The notes under the pieces: model-generated
Told to the model about the DNA's origin: nothing
Seen by the model: only the letters and a program-made list of their open reading frames with translations
The model's database searches: none
Translations under genes and position numbers: made by a program
Shown here: positions 1,444 to 35,929 of the stretch, piece by piece
Layout of the letters: every line of letters starts with the position of its first letter
Position numbering within the stretch: the stretch's first letter is position 1
Virus record (IMG/VR): IMGVR_UViG_3300048856_000112
Coordinates: 1-37,748 of that record
Origin: a virus
Lineage: Duplodnaviria; Caudoviricetes
Reading direction: 5' to 3' (one strand)
DNA: 37,748 nucleotides

Positions 1444-1504
1444 GGGCACGGCCTTTGATGCCCTGAAGCCTTCTGCTACAAGTACGGCAAAAGCAGGAGG
1501 CAAA

Positions 1505-1798
1505 ATGCGCGTTATAAGTTTTATGGGTGCCGTCGCCATGGCGCTCATCAATTTGGTTGCTGCGGCGGCTGCCATAGCGCTTGCGGCTCCGGGGCGGAGC
1601 TTCGGCCAGTACAATCCTGATTGGAATCCTGCGCTCGTTGCTGTTGCACTTACCTGTGTCAGCGCTGCGGTTATCCTCGTTGGCCTCGCCGCGCATTTGC
1701 GTGAGCTTGCCCGGCAGACTGATGCCGCTGAAGCCTCTGCCTCTCGGCTGGCGGACGTTCGCGACCATCTGAAAGGTGTGTCGCCTCGGACTTGGTAG
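1505..1798 (+). CDS. Counter-oriented two-TM membrane protein (moron-like)
   Basis: AGGAGG at 1495-1500 before ATG 1505; two hydrophobic helices (VISFMGAVAMALINLVAAAAAIALAA and ALVAVALTCVSAAVILVGLAA); visibly more AT-rich than the flanks. Confidence 0.7.
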   Translation: MRVISFMGAVAMALINLVAAAAAIALAAPGRSFGQYNPDWNPALVAVALTCVSAAVILVGLAAHLRELARQTDAAEASASRLADVRDHLKGVSPRTW

Positions 1799-2032: not shown

Positions 2033-2220
2033 CGCCGCTCCTTTCCAGTGCTGAGAGCGGCGAAAGCTGCCGCATATGCCGCACGCTTCCCTTCAGGCCA
2101 TGACGCGATATCCGCCTTGGCCGCGGCGATGGCCTCTCGCTCTTCGTATGCCGAACGCCGCATCGCCCCCTGCCAGCAGGTGCTGGCGCAGGAGCAATCG
2201 GGATAAAGGCTGCAGGTCAC
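2029..2220 (-). CDS. Small Cys-rich hypothetical protein (CSLYPDCSCASTC)
   Basis: 4-bp overlaps with both neighbours; four Cys at the N-terminus suggest possible metal binding. Confidence 0.55.
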   Translation of the reverse strand: MTCSLYPDCSCASTCWQGAMRRSAYEEREAIAAAKADIASWPEGKRAAYAAAFAALSTGKERR

Positions 2221-2738
2221 TGGCGCCCCCGTGCCACAGCGAGGCCGGCGGCCCCGATCAGGAACAGCGCCAGGCTCCAGGGCTCCGGCACCGGCTGGGG
2301 TGGCTGGTCAAAGCCAGCGGACGGCTGGCCGGGCGTAAGGCCCGGTGAAGGGGACCAGCCGGAACCGGGCTTCATGCTTTCCGCCTCCGTCGCAAAGATC
2401 GAGGGCGGGTTGTCGAGGATATCCGCGCGCAGTGCCGACATCAGAGCACGGAGGGGAGCCCCATGGTCGGCCGTCGCGTCGAAAGGGCCGGCGGGCGATA
2501 CCACCTCCTGTGCCGCCGTCTCGCTACCGAGGCCCCATGCCGGCGCATAGACCGGCAGCCAAACCAGCGAGGCGACACAGACCAGGGCGCCAGCAGCGCC
2601 GGCCGTCTTCATGACGATGGCCGGCACAAAGCCTGTCAGGACCTTGGGCACCGCGACAGTGGCGACGGCGCCGCCGCCGGATGTTGCCGCGGACTTTCGG
2701 GGTGCTAGGCGGAAGCACCTCATGATGGTGCGGATCAT
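2217..2738 (-). CDS. PEP-CTERM sorting-domain protein
   Basis: C-terminus VPEPWSLALFLIGAAGLAVARGRQ = VPEP motif + TM helix + basic tail; Pro/Ser/Gly-rich linker; N-proximal hydrophobic segment ending APAWG. Confidence 0.85.
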   Translation of the reverse strand: MIRTIMRCFRLAPRKSAATSGGGAVATVAVPKVLTGFVPAIVMKTAGAAGALVCVASLVWLPVYAPAWGLGSETAAQEVVSPAGPFDATADHGAPLRALMSALRADILDNPPSIFATEAESMKPGSGWSPSPGLTPGQPSAGFDQPPQPVPEPWSLALFLIGAAGLAVARGRQ

Positions 2739-5964: not shown

Positions 5965-6066
5965 TCAGCTGACGCCGACCCAGTAGATCCAGCTGCTGAC
6001 AGACGCGGCGAAGGCCGCCACGAAGAGCGCGCCTTCCAGGAAGGCCGAGGTGCGGGCGGCGTTCAT
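5965..6066 (-). CDS. 33-aa single-TM microprotein (MNAARTSAFLEGALFVAAFAASVSSWIYWVGVS)
   Basis: Read by hand; ATGA overlap with the MarR stop and GGAG upstream; hydrophobic. Confidence 0.55.
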   Translation of the reverse strand: MNAARTSAFLEGALFVAAFAASVSSWIYWVGVS

Positions 6067-6470
6067 GCGGCGCGCTCCATGCTGCAGGCGCCATAGGCGA
6101 CCGCGAGCAGGGCGACGCCTGCGGGGGTTGCCTCGGCCAGCACCGAACGGCCGTCTGTCGGGTGTGGCAGACGCTGGGCCAGCCCTTCCGCCGCGAGACG
6201 GTCCAGCGCGCGGGTGATCACTGGTTTCTGCAGCCGGAGTTCGGCGGCCAGGCCCTTCACCGTGTGCGGAGCGGGGCGCTCGCGCAGGGTGAGCAGCACG
6301 GCCAGTTGCCGCACCGACAGGTCGCGACCGTCTGCGGCGATCAGGGCCAGCAGGCTCGGGCGCAACTGGTCGGCGCCGACTGGTGGCGGCTTGGGCGCAG
6401 CGGAAGGCGCTGAGGGTGCCTCGCGGCGCAGGGTCTGGTGCGCGGTGCTAAGTGATGTGAGCTGTTGCAT
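6063..6470 (-). CDS. MarR-family winged-helix regulator
   Basis: DLSVRQLAVLLTL...HTVKGLAAELRLQKPVITRALDRL...DGRSVL; GGAGG RBS before ATG 6470; first gene of the leftward operon. Confidence 0.88.
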   Translation of the reverse strand: MQQLTSLSTAHQTLRREAPSAPSAAPKPPPVGADQLRPSLLALIAADGRDLSVRQLAVLLTLRERPAPHTVKGLAAELRLQKPVITRALDRLAAEGLAQRLPHPTDGRSVLAEATPAGVALLAVAYGACSMERAA

Positions 6471-6551
6471 GTTGCCTCCGAAGGGTCTGGAGGCGCTAAG
6501 TAACACTTAGCATGGCAGGCAGATCAAGAGATTTGTTCAGTGTTGCTTAGC
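6447..6551. promoter_or_regulatory. Leftward operators (OL-like) and candidate pL
   Basis: GCTAAGTAACACTTAGC (6495-6511, palindromic), GTTCAGTGTTGCTTAGC (6535-6551) and GCTAAGTGATGTGAGC (6447-6462); minus-strand TTGATC -35-like hexamer near 6523-6528. Confidence 0.75.
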
Positions 6552-6643
6552 ATGCTGGCGCGCGCGATCGCCGCGCGCGGGCAAGCCCCGCCGCCCGAGA
6601 TCGCCAAAAAGGGGATCTCGCGCAACGAAATTTAGCGCTTGAT

Positions 6644-6658
6644 GTTCACATTCTGTTC
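6644..6658 (+). promoter_or_regulatory. Alphaproteobacterial LexA (SOS) box overlapping a rightward promoter
   Basis: GTTC-ACATTCT-GTTC is an exact GTTC-N7-GTTC. It overlaps TTGATG (-35-like, 6639-6644), and a degenerate GAAC-N7-GAGG box lies at 6671-6685. Confidence 0.8.
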
Positions 6659-6690
6659 TGTTCTAGATGAGAACGTAACAGGAGGGCGGG

Positions 6691-6966
6691 ATGAGTGACA
6701 GGCGGAAGCTATATGAGTTCCCGCGCCGGCTCAGGATCGTCCCCATCACCTTCAGCGCCGAGGCCTGCGCTGCGCAGCATTTTCAGCATGAAGCGCCGTT
6801 CGGTCGGCTGGAGCCGCCGCCACAGGGTCAAAAGCGCAATCTCGTCAGGATCTTCGACTATCTGGCCGTAGTAGGGCGACCCCGGCGCCAGGAACGACTG
6901 GGCGCTGATGCCGAACACGGCGCAGATATCGATCAGCCGGGCCAGCGAGGGGCGTGTGGTCTTTAG
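6691..6966 (+). CDS. SOS-box-controlled ORF nested antisense in the repressor gene (candidate antirepressor or antisense transcript)
   Basis: AGGAGG (6680-6685) 5 nt before the ATG; LexA box directly upstream; 258 of its 276 bp overlap cI on the opposite strand. Confidence 0.5.
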   Translation: MSDRRKLYEFPRRLRIVPITFSAEACAAQHFQHEAPFGRLEPPPQGQKRNLVRIFDYLAVVGRPRRQERLGADAEHGADIDQPGQRGACGL

Positions 6967-7074
6967 TTCCCACTGGGCAATCGCGCTCCCTGAGATCCCC
7001 AGCGCCTTCGCCAGGGCGCGTTGGGACCACCCTCGCTTCGTGCGTTCGGTACGGATCAGGTCGCCAATTTCCAT
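6709..7074 (-). CDS. cI: XRE-family CI-like prophage repressor without an S24 peptidase domain
   Basis: IGDLIRTERTKRGWSQRALAKALGISGSAIAQWE...PSLARL is an HTH_3 pattern; short C-terminal DEIALLTLWRRLQPTERRFML domain; divergent from cro. Confidence 0.88.
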   Translation of the reverse strand: MEIGDLIRTERTKRGWSQRALAKALGISGSAIAQWELKTTRPSLARLIDICAVFGISAQSFLAPGSPYYGQIVEDPDEIALLTLWRRLQPTERRFMLKMLRSAGLGAEGDGDDPEPARELI

Positions 7075-7076
7075 GC

Positions 7077-7157
7077 GCTTAGCGTGACTGATCAGAAGGT
7101 TAGCAGCACTTAGCATTTCACTTGCCGCTTTCTGCTAAGTGATGCTAAGCACTTAGC
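7077..7157. promoter_or_regulatory. Rightward operators (OR-like) and pR/pRM region
   Basis: GCTTAGCGTGACTGATC (7077-7093), GGTTAGCAGCACTTAGC (7098-7114), GCTAAGTGATGCTAAGC (7134-7150) and an overlapping GCTAAGCACTTAGC palindrome (7144-7157); TTGCCG -35-like hexamer at 7122. Confidence 0.78.
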
Positions 7158-7158
7158 C

Positions 7159-7371
7159 ATGGAAGGCATGGAACTCATCCGCTCCCAGCGTGGCCTGATG
7201 GCCAGTATCGCCAGGGGCCTCGGGATCACCCGGGCTGCGGTTGCGACCTGGAAGCGGGTCCCGGCGGAGCGAGTGGCTGAGGTGTCGCGCCTCACCGGCC
7301 TGCCGATGGGCGCGCTGCGGCCGGACATGTTCGGGCCGCCGGCAGTGCCAGGCGAGCGGGAGGCAGCATGA
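7159..7371 (+). CDS. cro: Cro/YdaS-like HTH regulator
   Basis: IARGLGITRAAVATWKRVPAERVAEVSRLTGLPMGALRPDMF carries the YdaS/Cro 'LRPD' signature; divergent from cI. Confidence 0.9.
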   Translation: MEGMELIRSQRGLMASIARGLGITRAAVATWKRVPAERVAEVSRLTGLPMGALRPDMFGPPAVPGEREAA

Positions 7372-7616
7372 TGCTGCTCTCCATTCCTTCCAGCATCGTC
7401 ATGGCAGCCCTCCTTCCTCCCGCTGCCATGATGCGCGGGCGGCAGCGCCCCTCTGCTGCCGCCCGCCTGATGCCTGCCGACTTGATGGATGTGTGTCTTC
7501 GTCATGCCTCTACGCTGACATGGAGATCTGCCGCGATGCTGGCACGGTGCGCCGCGTGTCTGGCTGATTGCGCCGCGATCTTGGCACGCTGTGCCAAGGC
7601 CGGCCGCGATGAATGA
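7368..7616 (+). CDS. Hypothetical protein
   Basis: ATGA overlap with cro and GGGAGG RBS; stop overlaps the next start. The sequence itself is not recognisable. Confidence 0.4.
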   Translation: MMLLSIPSSIVMAALLPPAAMMRGRQRPSAAARLMPADLMDVCLRHASTLTWRSAAMLARCAACLADCAAILARCAKAGRDE

Positions 7617-7989
7617 CATCCTAATGGGCGAGATGCGCGGCTACATCAGCGCCATCATCGAGCCCCACCGGCCGCGCGGAATGAAATCCGCCTGGTCCAT
7701 TGCGGCGCGCATGATCGGGGTCACGCCCCGCCGCGTGCGCGCCATCCTCAACGGCGAGGCGCTGCGCATCAGCGCCGCCGAGTTCATCCGCGCACAACAG
7801 GTACACGCCGAACAGCTCCAGCAGCGCGCTGCCGTGCTTCGGGCGGAGCTGGAGAGGATCGAGCGGAAGCAAGGGAAAATCCATGCCGTGGTTGTGGCGA
7901 CTGATGCTGGGCACGGTGCTGATCTGGATCGGCACCCCTATTTTCCAGCTCGGAGAGAAGATCGTCAGCATCGGCCGGCGGCTGATTGA
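7609..7989 (+). CDS. CII-position HTH protein with coiled coil
   Basis: WSIAARMIGVTPRRVRAILNGEA HTH followed by a coiled coil; position downstream of cro. Confidence 0.7.
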   Translation: MNDILMGEMRGYISAIIEPHRPRGMKSAWSIAARMIGVTPRRVRAILNGEALRISAAEFIRAQQVHAEQLQQRAAVLRAELERIERKQGKIHAVVVATDAGHGADLDRHPYFPARREDRQHRPAAD

Positions 7990-21566: not shown

Positions 21567-22231
21567 GCGGCAGTCGCGCCTTCCGCCGGTCGGTGCAGGT
21601 CTTCGTCGCGCAGAACCTGTCACCAGAAGCACAGTCGCGGGCGCTGGCGGCAGCGGCGCGGGCTGGCCGCGATGATCTGATCCGCTCCGGCCGCGCCGCG
21701 CCAACCTACGCCACCTTCGTGGACGGGCAGCAGGGCGCCAGCGAGGACCGGGTGCGGCCTGGCGGGGCCATCATCTACAGATTCCAGGTCCTAGGCGAGG
21801 CGGCGGTCTTCGCCATGGCGTTCCTGCGCGAGCGCTCACCGGTGAAGAGCGGGACCTACCGCGATTCCTTCCAGTATGCCGTCAGCTCCGGCGGTGACGG
21901 CACCGCCAATCGCTACCTCGGCGCGCGGATCATCCGGCCTGGCAGCTTCGACCCCGAGCAGGTCGGCACTGACGTGGATGAGGTGATCCTGTTCAACCGC
22001 GCCCCCTACAGCCGCAAGGTGGACGTGCAGCTGGTGGGCAGCCGCCGGCTCCGGTTCAGCGTGCCGCCGGACTTGTTTGACGATGCCGCCCAGGCAGTGC
22101 GCAGGCGCTTCCCAACCCTGGCGGCGCGGCGCGTCTACAGCATGAACTTCCCGGGGCAGTGGACCCTGAAAGATGGCCCTCGGGCCGGCAAGCCGGTGGA
22201 GAGCCCGGCCCTTGTGATCGGAAGGAGATAG
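21563..22231 (+). CDS. HK97 gp10-like tail/neck protein
   Basis: SPVKSGTYRDS and NRAPYSRKV motifs; ATGA overlap with the gpGT stop; GGAGGG RBS. Confidence 0.7.
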   Translation: MSGSRAFRRSVQVFVAQNLSPEAQSRALAAAARAGRDDLIRSGRAAPTYATFVDGQQGASEDRVRPGGAIIYRFQVLGEAAVFAMAFLRERSPVKSGTYRDSFQYAVSSGGDGTANRYLGARIIRPGSFDPEQVGTDVDEVILFNRAPYSRKVDVQLVGSRRLRFSVPPDLFDDAAQAVRRRFPTLAARRVYSMNFPGQWTLKDGPRAGKPVESPALVIGRR

Positions 22232-22233
22232 CC

Positions 22234-25200
22234 ATGGCCAGCGTCAGCCAGGTGACCGAAGCCGTCTTTACCAGCCGCTTCGAAGACCAGACCACGGCTG
22301 GCGCGACCGCCGCTGCGCGCTCCTTGGACAGCCTGGGCAACGCCGTGGAGGCGGTGGATGAGCGCCTGACGCGCACCACCAAGACGGCAGCCACCTGGGT
22401 GCGGCAGAACGATCTGGTCACCCAGGCGGCTGACCGGCTGGCCAGGGCGGAGCGCGATGCCGAGCGGGCGCAGAAGGCGCTGGCGGAGGAGTTCCTGGCT
22501 GGCGGCGCGCGCGCAGAAGCCGCCGCGCGCGCCATGGAAGGGCTGAACGCGAAGGTGGAGACTGCGAAGTCTCGCGTCGAAGCGTTGCGCCAAGCCCATG
22601 CCGATAGCCGGAAGGACATGGACGGCGTCAGCGAGGCGGCCGGGCTGTTGTCGCAGCGAATGGATGCTCTGGCGACGGCCAGCCAGAGGGCGTCAGCGGC
22701 GCAGGCCAGCTACAACCAGATGCTGGGTGTGCGCGTGTCCGATGCGGATGCCTATGCCCGCCGTGCGGCTGACATCGCGGCCTATGGCACCGAGCTGGAC
22801 CGCCTCCGGGCCAAGTTCAATCCGCTCTATGCCGCCAGCAAGCAGTATGAGGCCGTGCTGGAGGAGATCGCGCAGGCTGAGCGCATGGGCGCGATCACGT
22901 CGCGCGAGGCGCAGCTGGCCCATGAGCGTGCCACCGCTGCCTTCGCGGCAGCCAATGCGCCGCTGCGTGGCGTTGCCACCGCCTCTGGCACGGCTCGCGA
23001 TGCGGTCAAGCTGCAAGCGCATGAATGGACCAACCTCAGCTACCAGCTGCAGGATTTCGTGGTGCAGGTGGGCTCCGGCCAGGGTGTGTTCCGGCCGCTG
23101 CTGCAGCAGGCCCCGCAGGCTACCGGCGCCGTTGGCGGTGTCAGCCGGGCGGTGCAGCTGGTGACGCAGTTCTTCACGCCGTTCCGCCTCGCCATGGTCG
23201 CCGCCACGGCTGCCAGCGCCACGGTGGCGCTGTCCTACAACAGCCAGGAAGCCGCGTTGGCGACCATGCAGACCCGGCTGCGCGGCGTGACCGCGGACTA
23301 TGAGGCCATGGGTCGGCGTGCGGAGGCGGCGGCCAAGGCGGCTGTTCTGGTCACGCCCGGACTGTCCATCGAAACCGCGCGATCGGCGCAGATCGCCTTC
23401 GCGCGCGCGGCGCCGCGCGGCAGCGGTCTCGACTTTGGCGCCCTGACCGCCCAGGCCGCCGACTTCGCGGCCACCATGGGCACCGATGTATCCGCTGCCG
23501 TGGATCGCTTCGCTGCGGCCATGCGCGACCCTGTCGCGCTGGTGGATGACCTGCGGAGCCAGGGCTTCCCCGGCATGAACGAGCAGCTGCGCCTCACCAC
23601 CCAGCGGATGGTGGAAGGTGGCCAGCGCGGGGACGCCTTTGCCCTGGTGATCGGCCGGATCTCGGAGCAGACCAAGGGCGCCGCAGAGGCCGGGCTGTCT
23701 CCCTTTGGCGGCGCCATGGATGCGCTGTCGCGCCGCCTGAAGTCGCTGGGCCAGGAAATCGGTGACTTCCTGGCGGAGCCGGGCCGGCAGTTTGCGGAGT
23801 GGCTGACCAAGCGGCTCGGCAAGACCAGCGAGGGTGGGGTGTTCGATCCCTCGCTCGGGAGCACCACCGGCATTGGTCGCCTGACCGGCTGGGAGCCCTG
23901 GGGCGGCAGCCGTCCACCGGGGTACAGCGCGGCCAACGAGATGGTCCGCGAGGAGCCCATCCGCAACGCGATCTCCGCCGCTTCTGCGGCGACGGGCGTG
24001 GACGCGGAGATCCTGGCGCGCATCTACTCGCTGGGCGAGCGGAGCCGGCCGAATGCGGATGGCAGCTGGCCTGTCAGCCCCAAGGGCGCCCAAGGTCCGT
24101 TCCAGTTCCTGCCGGGCACCTTCGCGGAGGTTGCGCAGCGATACGGTATCCAGGGCACGCCGACTGACCCCAACGCGGCGGCGCTGGCGGCGGCATACTA
24201 CTTCCGCGAGAACTACCAGAAGTTCGGCGATGTTGACCTGACACTGGGCGCCTACAATGCCGGCCCACGCCGCATGGAGCAGGTGCTGGCTGGCCAGGCG
24301 GCGCTGCCAAATGAGACCGCCCAGTACATCCGCCGGGCGGGCGCAGGTTACAACGGCACGCCGCTCGGCGCTCCGGCGCAGGCTTCCCCCTCGCAGCCGG
24401 TGCCCGTGGTCCTGGTCAACCGTCCAAACGGCTTCGATGCTTCGGGCGCCGATGCCTCCTCGATGGCGCGGCGCGACCAATCCGCACAGACGGTGGATCG
24501 GGCGCTGTCGATGGCGCGTGGCGCCGCGCCAGTGCCGGGCCAGGATGGCACCCTGGCCGTCCAGCGCGCAGGCCTGGAAGAGGCGATCGCGCTGGCCGAG
24601 AGGGCAAAGCAGGCGACTGCGGGCAATGCCGAGGTGCAGGACCGCCTGACGGCCGCGCAGGAAAGGTGGCGCGCAACCCTCGACGGTCTGAAGGGGCCGC
24701 AGGAGGAAGTGCTGCGGGGCCTGTCGCGGGCCGCGCAGAGCGCCAATGAGTACGACCCTGCGCAGCGTGCGGTGAATGAAGCGATCCGTGAGTATGAGGA
24801 TCGCATGCGCGCGGCTGGCCAGATCCCGACCGATGAAGGGCGCTCGCAGGTCCGGGCGCAGAAGCTGAAGGAGTTGGGCGCAGCCTATGTCGGCGCCAGC
24901 CGCGACGCGCAGCGCTCCATCCAGGGCCAGGATCGGCTGGCCGAGGCCTGGGGACAGGGCCGCGAGGCGGTGCAGCGCCTGGCGGCCGAGGAGAAGGCCC
25001 GCGAGGTGGTGCGCGCCTCCGGCATCCAGGGAGATGAGGCGCAGCGGGCCAAGGTGCGGGAGTTGGCCGACGAGTATGAGCGGCTGACCGAAAAGCAGGC
25101 CGACAATGCGCTGCGCGCCTCCAACGACACGGCGCAGCGCAATCTCGATTACCTGGAGAAGGAGCGGGAGCTGGTTGGCGCAACGGCGGATGAGCGGGAA

Positions 25201-27612
25201 CGGGAGCTGGCCGCCTACCGGGCGCGTCAGAATGCCACCGCATCCGGCGCCAAGGATGAGGGGGAGATCGCCAAGGCCGAACAGCTGGCGCGGCAGACGG
25301 TGGATACGAACCGCCAGATCACGCAGATGCGCAACTCGTGGGACGAGGTGGCCCGCGTCGGTGAGCAAGCCTTCGACAGGATCGGCGGGGCGATTACCGA
25401 GGCCTTCGCCAACGGCTCCCTGAAGGCAGTGGACTTCAAGAACGTTGCCAAGGCTGCTCTGAGTGAGGTGCTGCAGGCAGCGCTGCGCCTGTCCGTCATC
25501 AACCCCGTGCTCAACGGCCTATTCGGCGGCACCCGTGGCACGCTGGGTGGCATCGGCGCCGTCATGTCGGGCGGCGGCGGTGACCTCGCCATCACCAACG
25601 ACAGTGGCGGCATCGTTGGCTACGTCCAGCAGGGCGCGCAGGCCTATTCTGCCTACAGCAAGCTGAGCGGCATCAACCCGACCAGCTACATCAATGCCAG
25701 CACGCCCATCAACACGGGCTTCAGCTGGCTCGACGGCGCACTGAATACGCCGGTGGGCGGGGCCTATAGTGGCATCAATGCCGGCGGAGCGGTCACCAAC
25801 TCGGCGGGCTACGGCTCGATGGCGCAGAATGCCATTGATGCTGGCGGCAGCCCCGTCGCTGCGGGCGCTGGATGGGGCACGTATGGCGGCTATGCCATGG
25901 GCGTGGCAGGTATCGCTGGCGGCCTCTACAGCGCCTACACCGGGGTGCAGCGCGGCGGCGTGGGCGGCTACACCCAGGCTGCCGGCGGCGCAGCCACCGC
26001 CGGCCTGTCGGCGGCGGCGATGTATGGCATGTCGGTGCCTGTCTACGGCTGGATCGCGGCCGCAGCGTTGCTCGTCTTGGGCGCCCTGCTGCCGGGTCAG
26101 AAGCCGTCCGACCGTACCGGCACCGCGACCTACTACACCAACGACCCAAGCAACCCCGTGGTCGGCGGCCTGAATGGCGATCGCTTCTCTCAGGAAAACC
26201 GCGACCAGGCGCTGGCTATCGGAGGCCAGTTGCTGGCGGTTGCCCAGAAGGTTGCGGATGTTACCTCGGTGCCAAACAACCGCGTCGAGACGGCTTACCG
26301 GGTGGCGGTTGGCGCGAGGGACGGATTGAATGTCTATTTTGGCGAGGACAAGCTGCATGGCTCGATGGACGAAGAGGGGGTGACCGCGGTCACCCGTGCC
26401 TTCGTCCAGCGCATCCTGCTGCAAGCGGCCGAGCAGACCACCGACCCCAATATCCGGTCGGTGATCAACCGCTCGGGGGTTGATGATTCCGACAAGACCT
26501 TGGCCAACTTGTCTTGGTACAACAACGACTACAAGAACATGATTGCCGCGAGCCAGACCCCGGTTCCGGCCTTCGTGCAGCAGATCAATGCTCTGGTCGC
26601 GCCGATCGAAGAGGCGAAGACCAAAGCGCGCGAGCTGGGGATCGCCGAGGACGATCTCAACGCGGTGAGGGCTACGGCGGTGCAGACGCTGATTGACCAG
26701 CGGAGTGCGACGCTCGCCGCCATCACTGCCAGCGACACGCAGCGCCAGGCTGCGGCCTCCGGCGTGTCCGAGATCGTGTTGCGGCTCCAGAACTTCAACA
26801 CCGCCGCGCAGGCTGAGGTGCGGGCGCTGGATGACCAGTTGCGTGACCTCGACATCCAGCCGGAGGCACGGGGCACCTTCACTGCCGACCGCTGGCGCAC
26901 CCTGGACGCCGAGTATCAGGCCCTGACGCGGCAGCGCGACATGGCTGTGACGGCCAACTCGAACAGCCTGTGGGACCGTTTCCAAGCCGCCAGTGGCAAT
27001 GGCGAGACTCTGGAGGGCGCGTTGTGGGATTACGACCGCCACGCGCTGGCCGAATGGACCCAAGCTGCGGCAGACGGCATCACCGATCTGACACTGCTGC
27101 AGCGGGTGCAGACGGAAGAGCGGCTGGCGATCGAGCGGCGCTTCGCCCAGGAAGCTACGGCTCTCGACGCGCAGCGCCGGGAGCAGGCTGAGCAGAGTGT
27201 GGTGAGTACGCTGGGCGGGATCACACAGTTCGTCCAGAGCCTGCAATTCGGCGATGCATCCAGCCTGTCACCGGATGCGCAACTGCGGCTGGCCAATAGC
27301 CAGTTCGATATCCTGTCCACGCGGGCGCTGTCCGGGGACTACGACGCCGTTACCCAGATTACCGGCGCGGCTGGGAACCTGCTGAACGCGGGCCGCGATG
27401 TCTACGCCAGCAGCCCGGGATATGCCGATCTGGAGCGGAGGGTTGTGGGCGTGTTGGAAGGCATTGCGAACATCTCGACGGACACCCTGACCAACAGCTC
27501 CATGGCCAGCATTGCCCAGAATCTTGGGGACCGGCTCTTGAGCGCGAACAACGATCTGAAGTCGGAAATTCGCCTGATGCGGAAGGCGATTGAAGGAATA
27601 CTTCCGCCATGA
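22234..27612 (+). CDS. Tape measure protein with internal lytic transglycosylase (SLT) domain
   Basis: Ala-rich helical 1792-aa ORF; TMP_2-like NLSYQLQDFVVQVGSGQ; SLT motifs GVDAEILARI..GERS, SPKGAQGPFQFLPGT, LGAYNAGP, ETAQYI; Gly-rich hydrophobic segment. Confidence 0.95.
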   Translation: MASVSQVTEAVFTSRFEDQTTAGATAAARSLDSLGNAVEAVDERLTRTTKTAATWVRQNDLVTQAADRLARAERDAERAQKALAEEFLAGGARAEAAARAMEGLNAKVETAKSRVEALRQAHADSRKDMDGVSEAAGLLSQRMDALATASQRASAAQASYNQMLGVRVSDADAYARRAADIAAYGTELDRLRAKFNPLYAASKQYEAVLEEIAQAERMGAITSREAQLAHERATAAFAAANAPLRGVATASGTARDAVKLQAHEWTNLSYQLQDFVVQVGSGQGVFRPLLQQAPQATGAVGGVSRAVQLVTQFFTPFRLAMVAATAASATVALSYNSQEAALATMQTRLRGVTADYEAMGRRAEAAAKAAVLVTPGLSIETARSAQIAFARAAPRGSGLDFGALTAQAADFAATMGTDVSAAVDRFAAAMRDPVALVDDLRSQGFPGMNEQLRLTTQRMVEGGQRGDAFALVIGRISEQTKGAAEAGLSPFGGAMDALSRRLKSLGQEIGDFLAEPGRQFAEWLTKRLGKTSEGGVFDPSLGSTTGIGRLTGWEPWGGSRPPGYSAANEMVREEPIRNAISAASAATGVDAEILARIYSLGERSRPNADGSWPVSPKGAQGPFQFLPGTFAEVAQRYGIQGTPTDPNAAALAAAYYFRENYQKFGDVDLTLGAYNAGPRRMEQVLAGQAALPNETAQYIRRAGAGYNGTPLGAPAQASPSQPVPVVLVNRPNGFDASGADASSMARRDQSAQTVDRALSMARGAAPVPGQDGTLAVQRAGLEEAIALAERAKQATAGNAEVQDRLTAAQERWRATLDGLKGPQEEVLRGLSRAAQSANEYDPAQRAVNEAIREYEDRMRAAGQIPTDEGRSQVRAQKLKELGAAYVGASRDAQRSIQGQDRLAEAWGQGREAVQRLAAEEKAREVVRASGIQGDEAQRAKVRELADEYERLTEKQADNALRASNDTAQRNLDYLEKERELVGATADERERELAAYRARQNATASGAKDEGEIAKAEQLARQTVDTNRQITQMRNSWDEVARVGEQAFDRIGGAITEAFANGSLKAVDFKNVAKAALSEVLQAALRLSVINPVLNGLFGGTRGTLGGIGAVMSGGGGDLAITNDSGGIVGYVQQGAQAYSAYSKLSGINPTSYINASTPINTGFSWLDGALNTPVGGAYSGINAGGAVTNSAGYGSMAQNAIDAGGSPVAAGAGWGTYGGYAMGVAGIAGGLYSAYTGVQRGGVGGYTQAAGGAATAGLSAAAMYGMSVPVYGWIAAAALLVLGALLPGQKPSDRTGTATYYTNDPSNPVVGGLNGDRFSQENRDQALAIGGQLLAVAQKVADVTSVPNNRVETAYRVAVGARDGLNVYFGEDKLHGSMDEEGVTAVTRAFVQRILLQAAEQTTDPNIRSVINRSGVDDSDKTLANLSWYNNDYKNMIAASQTPVPAFVQQINALVAPIEEAKTKARELGIAEDDLNAVRATAVQTLIDQRSATLAAITASDTQRQAAASGVSEIVLRLQNFNTAAQAEVRALDDQLRDLDIQPEARGTFTADRWRTLDAEYQALTRQRDMAVTANSNSLWDRFQAASGNGETLEGALWDYDRHALAEWTQAAADGITDLTLLQRVQTEERLAIERRFAQEATALDAQRREQAEQSVVSTLGGITQFVQSLQFGDASSLSPDAQLRLANSQFDILSTRALSGDYDAVTQITGAAGNLLNAGRDVYASSPGYADLERRVVGVLEGIANISTDTLTNSSMASIAQNLGDRLLSANNDLKSEIRLMRKAIEGILPP

Positions 27613-31621: not shown

Positions 31622-31699
31622 CAGCCTCTCAGCACCGCTGAGCCTTCCCATCGTGCGGCAGCAATGCCGGGCGCGATCCCCTATGCACGGAGCCATCAC

Positions 31700-34600
31700 A
31701 TGAGCGGTAGCACCCGCGTTGTACTGAATGACGCTGTTTTCCGCGCGGCCATTCCCGAGACCGCAGCGAAGCTGGACTCGGTAGGCCAGAACGCAAATCG
31801 TGCCGAGGCGGCGGCGGATCGGGCGGAGCAAGCGGCCAACAACGCGGGCGGCTCGGGGCCGGTTGACCCTGCTGCTATCATCACGGCGGGCAAGGAGCAG
31901 ATCCGCCAGATCGTGCGGGAGTACCTGGTAGAACTGGGCCTTATCCAGGACGGTGGCACGCCTGGGGTCACCCTGCCGGCACTGACCATCACCCCGGCCA
32001 CCGGCGTTGCGGCGGATGCGCCGGCCGGCACGCTGCTGGGCACGGTCAACGTGGCCACGCCCTCTGGCGCCACACGCGCGCTGATCCTCGGCGGACCTGG
32101 TGCCATCATGGACCCCAACGACGCGACGGGGCGCCGCATCATCCGCAGCAGCAGCGGCACCGTCACGGCCGGCACGTTGAACCTGAGCGTGCGCGACACG
32201 CACCCGAATGCGACCAACAGCCCGCAGACGGCATCCGCTGGGGTCACCATCGCAGCGGCGGGCGGCGGCACGCCCACGATCACAAAGCCGACCTTCAACC
32301 CGGCCTCCGGCACCTTCCCGCTGGATGCGGCGGCAAGCCTCAAGCTGGCAGACATCCTGCCCGCGACCCCGGCAGCTGGCATCACGCGCACCGCCTCCGG
32401 CACGCTGACCACAGACAACGGGAAGGCGCAGGTGTTGCGCGGCCTGACCAGCGCCACCGAAGGCCAGTCCCTCACGCTGACTGTGCGCGACGCGCTGACC
32501 AGCAACCCGGCGATCTACGAGGAAACCACCTTCACGGCCACCGCGCAGCAGGCCTATGTGCCGCCGGCTGGGGCCTTCGAGTATACCGCCCTTGCCAAGC
32601 CCACTGTGGGCAGCGAGGCCGGCGTTACCTATGTGCCGCAGATGCAGGTTCGCAGCGCGGCGGGCGAACTCCAGGGCTTTGCCTTCAATGCGGGTTCCTC
32701 CGCGCTGGCGGCGCGCTATGGCTGCTTCGCGCTGACCCTGGAGCGCGGGCTCCTGCTGCCCACCGAATACGTCGAGTATGTCCGCGAGGACAACGGCACG
32801 GTGGTGCCGGCGCAGATGGCGGTGCTGCGGAAGTGGCCCGATGGCTCCGCGAAGCATGTCCGCCTAGCCTGTATGCATCCGGCACTGACGGCCGGGCAGA
32901 CGATCCGGGCCATGCTGCGCAAGGCCAGCGTCGCGCCCAGTGGTGCGGTGGTGACGCACGCCGGCCTCTCCAGCAGCCCCTTTACCGGCTCCATCCAGGT
33001 CAAGGGCCACTATGCCGCCAACAGCAACACGCTGGTGGCCATGTCCGGCACCTATGACATCGGCGTCTCGACCATCGTCGCCAATGCCACGGCCGGCTCG
33101 TATTGGATGCAGGGGCCGATCTGCACCGAGCGGCGTTACATCCTCGACATGCCGGAGGCGCTGCGCCTCATCGTCGATATCCGCGTCTATGCGGACGGTT
33201 CGCATGAGGTGGACTACCAGCCGGCGGCCGATAAGCAGCGGTGGGCCAACGCGGGCGGCTGGTGCTCCTGGCAACTCGGCATCACCATTGCGCAGGGCGG
33301 AACCAACGTCCTGAACCTGCCGACGCAGCGCATCGGCATCGCGCAGGTCGGGCGCAAGCTGGTGGCTTCCGCGCTGTCGGCGGCCACGAATGCGCTCAAT
33401 GATCCGCCGGTGCATAACGTGCAGGTGGACGCGCCGCTCTACACGCAGATGGGCGTCTTCCCGATCTACAACTACGGGCTCGGCGTCAAAGGCACCATGG
33501 CGGCGGATGTCGCAGCGCGGATGACTGGCTATTCCGGCTGGCGCTCCATGCTGAACAACAACGGCGTGCGCAAGGATATGGGCGCCGTGGCGGCGCGTAT
33601 GGATATCGGCATCGTCCCGGGCTGGCACGCGGAATGGTGCATGACGCAGGCGGAGCCCTGCCGCCGCTCCATGATCGCAACGGGCGAGGTGGCCGGCGCC
33701 ACGAAGATCAATGCCTGGGACATCACCAGCAATACCCGGCTGAATATCTTCAGCGACAAGGGCGGCTACCCGGGGATGTGGTTCGACTACCGGGGCAATG
33801 ATGACGGCTCCAACCCGTCGAACATCACCACGCCCGATAGCTGGGACGGCTGGGAATACGACACTGGCCACACGCCGATGCTGCCTTACCTGCCCTATGT
33901 CGCGACAGGTGACCGCTTCTTCTATGACCGCTTTGAAGCGCTCGTCATGGCGACGCTGCTTTACACCTATCCGCCAGGCCGCCGCGCCTACATCGAGGGC
34001 GGCTTGGATTGGTGCGTGATGCAGAACAACCAGCCCCGCGAGGCGGGGTGGAACGCGCGCGATCTCGGCTATGGAGCGATGATGCTGCCGGACGTGTCGC
34101 CCTTCCAGGCGCGTATCCTGGAGGTGGTGGACTACACGTTCCAGGTTCTGCTGGACCGCTCGGCGGCGTGGGCAGCGGCGCAGGGCCAGTGCAAGGGCTG
34201 GCTGCCCAACACCAACCCTTACGACTCCTCGGTGCTCAAGCACTGGATGCAGGACCACGTGGCCGCCGGCACGGCCATCTGTTTCCAGGGCGGTTCCTTG
34301 AAGGCCGCCGCGTTCATGGATTGGGCGCGCAACTACATGGTCGGCCGGTTCATGCAAGACGCCAACGGCATGAGCCACAAGAAGGCGTGCTGGTTCCTGG
34401 CGGCCATCGGCAACAGCCATGACATCCTGGCCACTCCGCCCACCGTGACGACCTGGGCGCAGATGGATGCGGCATCGCACACCGATAGCGACGCTGCGCC
34501 GGTGAACGGCTTTGACGGCGGCGGCAACTACAACCAGTTGGGCCTGCGCACGCTGGCCTATTACGCCATGCTGCGCGGCGACGATCAGGCCAGGGCCATG

Positions 34601-35929
34601 ATCGATACTTACGTCTCGGAGGGCGCGCGGTTCACAGACCCCTCCAGCTACCGTGCCGACCCCACCGACAACATGCGGCCCCTGACGATCACCGGTCAGG
34701 TGGGCGGCGAGGAGCCCGAGGAGCCCGAGGAGCCGGGTGAGCCGGTGGCCGCCGTCGTGATCCCGGCCGGCCAGACCATCACCAACCCGGCCAATGCGCC
34801 CCTGAATACCGTGCTCGGGCGGGTTGTCATGACCGGCGGGACTCCGGTCTCTGTGACCATCTCCGACCCCCGGTTCGCCATCGAGTTGGACGGCGATGTG
34901 CTGCTTAAGCAGACCATTTCCGACACTTCGGTTGACCGGACCTTCAAGGCCAATGTGACGGCCACGAACAGCGCTGGCGCCGCCACGACGCAAGAAGTGA
35001 CATTTGCCTTCACTGCGGTTGCGGCGGGCGGCGGCGCTGGCCCGGGCTATCCCGCGCTGCCGGTCACGTACCACGCGCGGCTGGCCATGCGCCGGACGAA
35101 GACCGACTATGCCTCGTCTATCGTGACCCTGGAGACGACGGTTGCGCCGATCGTGTCGCAAGCCTTCGGCCTCAACAGCTCGGGCGTTATTGACCGGGCG
35201 GCCGTCACCTCCTGGCTCTCCAGCCGGGCGGCCAATGCGCGCGGCACTTATGCGACCTGGCACAACCAGGACGCGCCGGGCACGCCGTTTGCCGCGCCCA
35301 GCGCGGGCTTCCGACCGCGCTTCACCAAGGACGATGGCTCGTTCTACTACATGACCGGCGGCCCGCAGGATGTCCCCTGCATCCGCATTCTGGGCGGCAC
35401 CCAGGGCCTCAAGGCTTTGCTGTCCGGTATGCCTGCTGGCGGCAAGAAAATCGGCGCTGTCATCGCCTTCCAGCAGGTCGGGGCCAACGCGCAGTTCCAC
35501 CGCGTGCTGGCATTCACCGGCACGGGCCAGGCGAACGACTACGACAACCCGGCCTCTATCGCCCTAATCGACCAGAACGACGGCGGCGAGTACCAGACCG
35601 AGACGAACAGCGAGAACGTCAACCTCTTCACGGGCGGGGCCGGCGTCGCAGCGGCGGTGGCCGTGGTGGTGGATGCGACGTTGAGCGCCCGCGCGATGCG
35701 CCACAAGGTCAATGATGATGTCATCATGGGCACCGAGGGCGGGTTCGCCCCCGGTATGGCGCTGCCCTCTTCCGGCACGCTGCGCATCGGGTTCTTCGAC
35801 GACGCGGGCACGGTGGCGGGGCCGGAACTGCTGGTGTCGGAGGTGGCGTTCTTCAGCTTCGACGCTCTGACCGATGTGCAGATTGAGACGCTGCAAGCGG
35901 CCGTCTACTCGCACACGATCCTGCCGTAA
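31700..35929 (+). CDS. Large multidomain tail protein; putative polysaccharide lyase/depolymerase with Ig/cadherin-like and ConA-like domains
   Basis: GGAG RBS; N-terminal coil and Thr/Ala-rich beta domains; WPDGSAKH (PcRGLX/PL26 N-domain-like); helical-toroid-like DTGHTPMLPYLPYVATGDRFFYD, NQPREAGW and HWMQDH; EEP linker; C-terminal lectin-like domain. Confidence 0.75.
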   Translation: MSGSTRVVLNDAVFRAAIPETAAKLDSVGQNANRAEAAADRAEQAANNAGGSGPVDPAAIITAGKEQIRQIVREYLVELGLIQDGGTPGVTLPALTITPATGVAADAPAGTLLGTVNVATPSGATRALILGGPGAIMDPNDATGRRIIRSSSGTVTAGTLNLSVRDTHPNATNSPQTASAGVTIAAAGGGTPTITKPTFNPASGTFPLDAAASLKLADILPATPAAGITRTASGTLTTDNGKAQVLRGLTSATEGQSLTLTVRDALTSNPAIYEETTFTATAQQAYVPPAGAFEYTALAKPTVGSEAGVTYVPQMQVRSAAGELQGFAFNAGSSALAARYGCFALTLERGLLLPTEYVEYVREDNGTVVPAQMAVLRKWPDGSAKHVRLACMHPALTAGQTIRAMLRKASVAPSGAVVTHAGLSSSPFTGSIQVKGHYAANSNTLVAMSGTYDIGVSTIVANATAGSYWMQGPICTERRYILDMPEALRLIVDIRVYADGSHEVDYQPAADKQRWANAGGWCSWQLGITIAQGGTNVLNLPTQRIGIAQVGRKLVASALSAATNALNDPPVHNVQVDAPLYTQMGVFPIYNYGLGVKGTMAADVAARMTGYSGWRSMLNNNGVRKDMGAVAARMDIGIVPGWHAEWCMTQAEPCRRSMIATGEVAGATKINAWDITSNTRLNIFSDKGGYPGMWFDYRGNDDGSNPSNITTPDSWDGWEYDTGHTPMLPYLPYVATGDRFFYDRFEALVMATLLYTYPPGRRAYIEGGLDWCVMQNNQPREAGWNARDLGYGAMMLPDVSPFQARILEVVDYTFQVLLDRSAAWAAAQGQCKGWLPNTNPYDSSVLKHWMQDHVAAGTAICFQGGSLKAAAFMDWARNYMVGRFMQDANGMSHKKACWFLAAIGNSHDILATPPTVTTWAQMDAASHTDSDAAPVNGFDGGGNYNQLGLRTLAYYAMLRGDDQARAMIDTYVSEGARFTDPSSYRADPTDNMRPLTITGQVGGEEPEEPEEPGEPVAAVVIPAGQTITNPANAPLNTVLGRVVMTGGTPVSVTISDPRFAIELDGDVLLKQTISDTSVDRTFKANVTATNSAGAATTQEVTFAFTAVAAGGGAGPGYPALPVTYHARLAMRRTKTDYASSIVTLETTVAPIVSQAFGLNSSGVIDRAAVTSWLSSRAANARGTYATWHNQDAPGTPFAAPSAGFRPRFTKDDGSFYYMTGGPQDVPCIRILGGTQGLKALLSGMPAGGKKIGAVIAFQQVGANAQFHRVLAFTGTGQANDYDNPASIALIDQNDGGEYQTETNSENVNLFTGGAGVAAAVAVVVDATLSARAMRHKVNDDVIMGTEGGFAPGMALPSSGTLRIGFFDDAGTVAGPELLVSEVAFFSFDALTDVQIETLQAAVYSHTILP

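Follow-up and report, generated by a model that had tools for sequence, protein, structure and literature searches.

Phages 186 and N15 have non-cleavable repressors, and their induction proceeds through the LexA-controlled units Tum and AntC, respectively. The promoter of the lambda OOP antisense RNA is also under LexA control. In Bacillus subtilis, SinR combines an HTH with a short helical oligomerisation domain that can be displaced by the small protein SinI (1b0n; mechanism after bioRxiv 10.1101/2025.11.23.689978); the pair is a chromosomal biofilm switch encoded by separate genes, and we know of no LexA link to it. Non-cleavable repressors and induction via a LexA-controlled unit are also found in the Gifsy pairs GfoR/GfoA, GtgR/GftA, and GfhR/GfhA, for which the accessible part of the source places the antirepressor module apart from the immunity region (PMC3121763). 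The OOP transcript of lambda converges into the 3' end of a lysogeny gene and is described, in the available portion of the report, as non-coding, directed at cII, and of little importance after SOS induction (PMC2327240). An immunity region with overlapping cistrons has been reported in an alphaproteobacterial phage, both of them with repressor function according to the title of the paper. The closest described system is AimX-AimC of phage phi106. According to the accessible text of the preprint (bioRxiv 10.1101/2025.11.23.689978), a LexA site precedes the 29-aa AimX ORF, which has a 30-bp antisense overlap with the 3' end of a non-cleavable repressor. The AimX protein, and not its RNA, relieves repression by forming a heterodimer that blocks repressor oligomerisation. 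Other AimX proteins are 29-80 aa long and "sometimes overlapping" (same preprint, same part).

The DNA analyzed here, hereafter the window, is a whole 37.7-kb provirus record (37,748 nt), rated 49% complete. Its cI gene is overlapped on the opposite strand by a 91-aa ORF that follows a LexA box. As far as the available preprint text goes, the locus resembles AimX-AimC in having a short HTH repressor of the kind not responsive to RecA, a divergent cro-like gene, a LexA site beyond the repressor 3' end, and a short overlapping ORF on the opposite strand; Foldseek also indicates a similar repressor architecture. It differs from AimX-AimC in its alphaproteobacterial host with a different LexA box and in an antisense protein that belongs to no PHROG or Pfam family. 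An earlier reading of the sequence alone had described the ORF as lying almost wholly antisense within cI, which holds for 258 of its 276 nt (93%), and had offered the arrangement as a candidate new induction switch. AimX is an earlier case of a LexA-gated short ORF antisense over a repressor 3' end, and the switch logic is thus not new. What appears to be novel, on sequence grounds, is the depth of the overlap and the presence of selected residues encoded by the strand complementary to repressor codons. In contrast with the Gifsy modules, the unit lies inside the repressor gene, and in contrast with OOP, it carries a selected protein frame whose target would be cI. The literature within reach, which left out most subscription papers and the AimX preprint supplements that may list longer overlaps, contained no description of this family or of an antirepressor gene lying antisense within its repressor gene over nearly its whole length.

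Many prophages have repressors unable to self-cleave and no annotated inducer. Such an inducer can hide opposite cI, on a strand where gene callers mostly miss genes. The locus would also represent a rare antisense overlap in bacteria or phages with selection visible in both frames, the products being probably a regulator and an inhibitor.

The cI/cro region

Pfam and PHROG scans of the provirus recognized an integrase, early genes, genes for head and tail, and a cI/cro switch. A Roseomonas-like host is probable, since the nearest named cI is that of Pseudoroseomonas aestuarii (76% identity), followed by those of two Roseomonas species. Operator-like repeats of one family occur both in the cI-cro intergenic region and in front of the left operon, and the antisense element is flanked by the left operators and the 3' end of cI (Table 1). 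An operator half-site at 6447 falls inside the start of the MarR-type gene. The two GC-rich hairpins could possibly serve as an insulator or as the cI terminator. No arbitrium genes (aimR/aimP) were recognized among the 40 window ORFs scanned, and the neighbor of the element is the MarR-type gene behind its operators; the locus is not an arbitrium module.

Table 1. Coordinates of the features of the cI/cro region in the window.
Feature	Position	Strand	Description
MarR-type winged-helix gene	6063..6470	-	First gene of the left operon
Left operator-like repeats	6495-6512, 6534-6551 (6495..6551)	-	Flank leftward -35-like TTGATC 6527-6522; putative function
Two GC-rich hairpins	6554..6623		Between left operators and LexA box; z -1.85, weak
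Candidate promoter facing cI	6639..6667	+	TTGATG 6639-6644, weak -10, box in spacer; putative
LexA box, exact alphaproteobacterial GTTC-N7-GTTC	6644..6658	+	GTTC-ACATTCT-GTTC
Inverted form GTTC-N7-GAAC (alleged second box)	6660..6674		Unsupported
AGGAGG ribosome-binding site	6680..6685	+	5 nt ahead of ATG 6691
Antisense ORF, candidate antirepressor	6691..6966	+	91 aa, codon-in-register with cI
Conserved N-terminal motif	6709..6750	+	Residues 7-20, LxxFPRRLR, then hydrophobic residues and T; over CI stop codon and tail codons 109-121
Middle hydrophobic segment	6838..6873	+	Residues 50-61; aligns with the helix strongly selected in the second group
TAG stop of antisense ORF	6964..6966	+	From rare Leu codon CTA at CI codon 37
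cI	6709..7074 (7074->6709)	-	121 aa; HTH ~1-60, two-helix C-terminal domain 76-102, disordered tail 108-121; no peptidase domain
cI-cro intergenic operator-like repeats	7078..7157		Repeat family common to the left-operon operators
cro-like gene	7159..7371	+	YdaS/P22 Cro families; same strand as antisense transcript

CI had been read as a 121-aa HTH protein without an S24 domain, and HTH_3 is indeed its sole Pfam domain; Peptidase_S24 was not found in the six frames of the record. Neither were the Bro-N, ANT, or Rha families found in the record, a 49% complete provirus, in keeping with the earlier remark that no other antirepressor is recognizable. In the AlphaFold model of CI, the last 13 codons are disordered. 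The top Foldseek match of this model is SinR/SinI (1b0n, E 2e-4), and the phi106 repressor with AimX (9sf2) ranks 17th with an E-value of 1.5e-3, both modest values that are owed largely to the HTH. Three CI homologues (P0025, P0051, and P0052) have tails of their own with short hydrophobic-basic motifs like the antisense N-terminal motif. The cI gene may be leaderless, since its ATG at 7074 is not preceded by an SD-like sequence. An in-frame ATG at 7116 would add 14 aa, and many homologues have been called with similar extensions; these cross the operator repeats and could represent artefacts or else a longer variant like that of Gifsy-3.

The LexA box described in the earlier reading is exact and is the sole exact box in the window. 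It agrees with the Caulobacter LexA consensus, GTTC-N7-GTTC, as given in the accessible part of the published report (PMC12700426). In shuffled sequence, a mean of 0.47 exact boxes per window is expected, and at least one occurred in 40 of 100 shuffles. The TTGATG hexamer, the AGGAGG, and the ATG of the ORF, which falls outside cI, are all present as that reading had them. A scan for E. coli-type promoters found none in 6000-7700, and the best -10 is weak (TTGATG-N17-TCTAGA). With a promoter score based on our own weights, the window reaches 10.0 in the direction of cI and 9.5 away from it, a small margin. Read leftwards, the box has the orientation of the boxes at host recA and lexA. An AGGAGG followed by an ATG occurs 10 times in the window. 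The second, degenerate box had to be given up: the sequence GTTC-TAGATGA-GAAC is an inverted form with two mismatches from the consensus, and it carries no weight because of these mismatches and because two more such forms lie inside terL.

The antisense frame is codon-in-register with cI and can therefore stop only at TTA, CTA, or TCA codons of cI. With the codon usage of the window, the probability of 85 open codons is 0.83, and the frame is open over at least 85 codons in 16 of 25 distant XRE genes from Acetobacteraceae-family genomes. Open-frame length was for both reasons rejected as evidence. Given the chance frequency of boxes and of open frames, the evidence from this single locus is weak. 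A second ORF behind the same SD, in the +1 frame (6695-6871), was rejected because the relatives favor the in-register frame.

The antisense ORF product belongs to no Pfam or PHROG family, and a single-chain model gave no predicted fold (pLDDT 49), with an unstructured N-terminus. Homologue searches with the antisense ORF alone gave no standalone match; atlas matches remained below 0.9 with low recognition, and an atlas search with a relative gave no usable feature match. The ORF of the window is absent from a 15-billion-entry sequence collection. The frame was called as a gene, without product names, in the records of four relatives, and these calls are not independent, since at least three of them are identical or near-identical to loci that built the query. 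No sequence mimicry of CI by the antisense product, of the kind that might be sought after SinR/SinI, was detectable (hhalign probability 0.1), and Rfam gave chance-level matches only.

Conservation in related loci

The comparison of related prophages for a conserved box, start, and open antisense frame, which the sequence-only reading had proposed as a check, came out in its favor. Loci were gathered from viral, genome, and metagenome collections and from genome searches at the family, order, and genus levels. Those with less than 120 nt beyond the cI stop, repeats more than 90% identical, and frames longer than 160 aa were dropped. The 122 loci kept comprise 21 close ones (profile score of at least 95, the window included) and 101 distant XRE loci. 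An exact LexA box (GTTC-N7-GTTC or GAAC-N7-GAAC) was present in 13 of the 21 close loci, 30-78 nt beyond the cI stop, and absent from eight, while only two of the 101 distant loci had one within 120 nt of the stop (p 2e-10). Many distant loci are not alphaproteobacterial, and a fairer control is therefore the set of 25 distant XRE loci from Acetobacteraceae-family genomes, none of which has an exact box. One close locus, L270, has a one-mismatch box with the TTGAT prefix of the window. In four genomes with relatives, one exact box lies near each host lexA and recA (8/8).

The best promoter over the box points into cI in 12 of 14 loci (one points away and one is a tie), and the score picked the right side at all eight host controls. 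In L038, L001, L165, and L270, no left-operator half-site occurs within 400 nt and the box still stands beside cI. Across these loci, sequence comparison indicates that the LexA box is conserved with cI and stays when the left neighborhood changes.

Starts behave in a frame-specific manner. In 19 of the 21 close loci, the first 66 nt after the cI stop contain a start in the antisense frame, against eight and four in the other frames. The corresponding counts are 11 against one and three for ATG starts, and eight against one and zero for starts with an SD match of at least 4 nt. The distant loci show an even distribution (37, 42, and 45 of 101). Start positions vary among the relatives, and many SD matches are poor, above all in the second group described below. 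The antisense frame ends after 41-44 codons in L003 and L082, with the motif kept.

Four close loci without the alphaproteobacterial box (L003, L087, L090, and L272) have a strong SD and an in-frame start. In L003, a palindrome (ATCAC-N6-GTGAT) is found about 80-95 nt past the cI stop in place of the box, which suggests that this hidden gene may be controlled there by a different host regulator. L163, a close cI of low GC content, lacks the box, and five stop-making codons interrupt its antisense frame, an apparent loss. A scan of viral contigs for the box together with the motif returned one match, L191. In the annotated phage collection, the best cI match had 35% identity across 84% of the query and none was close, so that the family could not be tied to the mitomycin-inducible phages of PMC8566455. 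None of four RNA runs, out of 24 listed for the relative L195, covers its cI. Relatives are carried by cultured, named strains of Roseomonas and Pseudoroseomonas, among them L039 in Roseomonas populi CN29, L040 in R. indoligenes SG15, and L038 in Pseudoroseomonas aestuarii. The combination of box, in-register start, stop-codon asymmetry, and synonymous constraint offers a screen for such genes.

Selection on the antisense frame

Selection was assessed by synonymous shuffling of cI. Over CI codons 109-121, antisense identity was 0.56 as compared with 0.29 after shuffling (z 10.1, 9 sequences, under a null that ignores the relatedness of the sequences), and outside these codons no other segment of this alignment exceeded z 2.7. 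Within the last 13 codons of CI, the antisense frame is better conserved than CI itself (0.57 vs 0.37, 8 sequences). Substitutions in the tail alter CI but are silent in the antisense frame: Glu or Lys lies under Phe, Glu or Gln under Leu, Ala, Ser, or Pro under Arg, and Gly, Ser, or Arg under Thr. Tails fully compatible with the motif were found in seven of 23 other CI proteins, mostly without DNA, as compared with four of 1930 background windows; the tails of more distant CI proteins are not motif-compatible. The CI tail looks kept as coding space for the antisense motif.

A second group of six relatives, L004 and L086 among them, has a CI without a tail, and the N-terminal motif is mostly absent. 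Here z reached 7.7 and 4.4 over CI codons 53-86 as compared with 1.0 over codons 2-36 (n=6). The selected segment is helix-like (FVxxFDxLTxxWG), and Pro62 and Pro67 of CI are encoded by CCA in all six relatives, giving Trp in the antisense frame. The ORF of the window keeps a related middle segment without the Trp. In its own group, z was 3.7 over codons 38-108 as compared with 2.1 over the non-overlapped codons 2-36 (7 sequences), an equivocal contrast. The division into two groups is only descriptive, because the null ignores relatedness and because the CI tree is poorly resolved, with a star on one of its 18 inner branches, and does not allow the events to be ordered.

The placement of stops is also asymmetric. 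Codons that make an antisense stop account for 42 of 221 Leu and Ser codons in CI 1-55 and for nine of 223 beyond (p 5e-7); the same count in controls was 13 of 416 and 40 of 648, respectively. CI codon 37, from which the ORF stop arises, is CTA or TTA in five of the seven Roseomonas-type relatives with Leu there, against a background of nine of 590 Leu codons in nine window genes. Taken as sequence evidence, these patterns indicate that the antisense frame is a protein-coding gene under amino-acid-level selection on parts of its length.

Proposed mechanism and alternatives

The reading that we consider moderately probable is that of a LexA-gated antirepressor overprinted on cI and binding the C-terminal domain of CI. 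Host LexA would repress the promoter facing cI, and DNA damage would free it through RecA-triggered LexA cleavage. The 91-aa product would then bind the two-helix C-terminal domain and break up CI oligomers in the manner of AimX and SinI. The left and right operators would open, and cro and the lytic genes would fire. As a helper effect, the same transcript may hamper cI transcription or run on into cro. An antirepressor acting on the C-terminal domain is taken as most likely because neither a peptidase nor a known antirepressor family was found in the record. Counting against it are the lack of a predicted fold, of a standalone homologue, and of detectable mimicry, the truncated frames in two relatives, the eight close loci without an exact box, the small promoter margin of the window, and the equivocal selection over the CI core in its own group. 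The strongly selected segment differs between the two groups, which one binding mode explains poorly.

The sequence-only reading had placed silencing by antisense RNA or transcriptional collision beside an antirepressor protein. Selection at the amino-acid level in the frame favors the protein over antisense RNA alone. A switch at the RNA level is nevertheless an alternative with some chance of being correct, albeit an unlikely one. The SOS promoter would silence cI by collision or antisense pairing, or read through the right operators into cro, while translation would shield the transcript from Rho and the protein would be a by-product. The transcript runs in the direction of cro, and a search of 6000-7700 revealed no intrinsic terminator; a stop-free distal frame with stops clustered near CI codons 37-55 fits a need for translation as such, and selection is weak over most of the window ORF, which has no predicted fold. 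Particular residues would be immaterial to such coupling, yet F-P-R-x-L-R-x4-T persists while its codons change synonymously, and in the second group two Trp are invariant. Moreover, when a stop was placed at the start of aimX in phi106 and phiW23, the response was lost although the antisense RNA was still made (bioRxiv 10.1101/2025.11.23.689978, accessible part).

Action of the ORF product through the host protease ClpXP is improbable. The motif, P-R-x-L-R followed by two hydrophobic residues, sits in the unstructured N-terminus and resembles the XB peptide of E. coli SspB (RGGRPALRVVK) and presumably also the N-terminal degron of lambda O. The XB peptide binds the ClpX N-domain, as stated in the accessible part of the source (PMC3983244), but it is C-terminal and gammaproteobacterial, the resemblance to it was judged by eye, and the motif is mostly missing from the second group. 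A more elaborate form, to which still slightly less credit is given, is an SOS-induced destroyer overprinted on cI, in which a helix read from the complement of the linker and C-terminal-domain codons would grip CI and the N-terminal tether, read from a tail that CI would retain solely as coding space, would hook ClpX. If true, repressor self-cleavage would have been replaced by an overprinted protease adaptor inseparable from its target by recombination. It is very unlikely that the gene is real and SOS-controlled but directed at another host or phage protein, for example in division, repair, or exclusion, with induction by another route. The link to CI is indirect, another inducer could lie outside a 49% complete record, and the four box-less relatives keep SD and start; against this, the unit travels with cI when the left neighborhood changes, and no other antirepressor family or peptidase was found in the record. 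The least credible alternative, with hardly any probability, is that LexA co-represses a leftward promoter of the early left operon, as in CTXphi, and that the antisense frame arose fortuitously from the codons of cI. In this register an open frame needs no special explanation, and the leftward orientation of the window box and the small promoter margin would fit. The frame-specific starts, the selection on the antisense frame, the promoter facing cI in most loci, and the retention of the box where left operators are absent speak against it.

Other genes of the provirus

Several further genes of the provirus deserve mention. A 173-aa early-operon protein (2217-2738, minus strand) has a hydrophobic segment at its N-terminus and a C-terminal PEP-CTERM-like sorting signal (Pfam E 0.0035, below the cut-off), an odd cargo for a phage left operon. 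A small hydrophobic gene (1495-1798, plus strand), which has its own AGGAGG, is opposed to the left operon and adjoins an excisionase-like gene, is moron-like. In the tail region, a 1421-aa protein (31664-35929, plus strand) has no Pfam or PHROG match, and the tape-measure protein (22159-27612, plus strand) carries an SLT domain.
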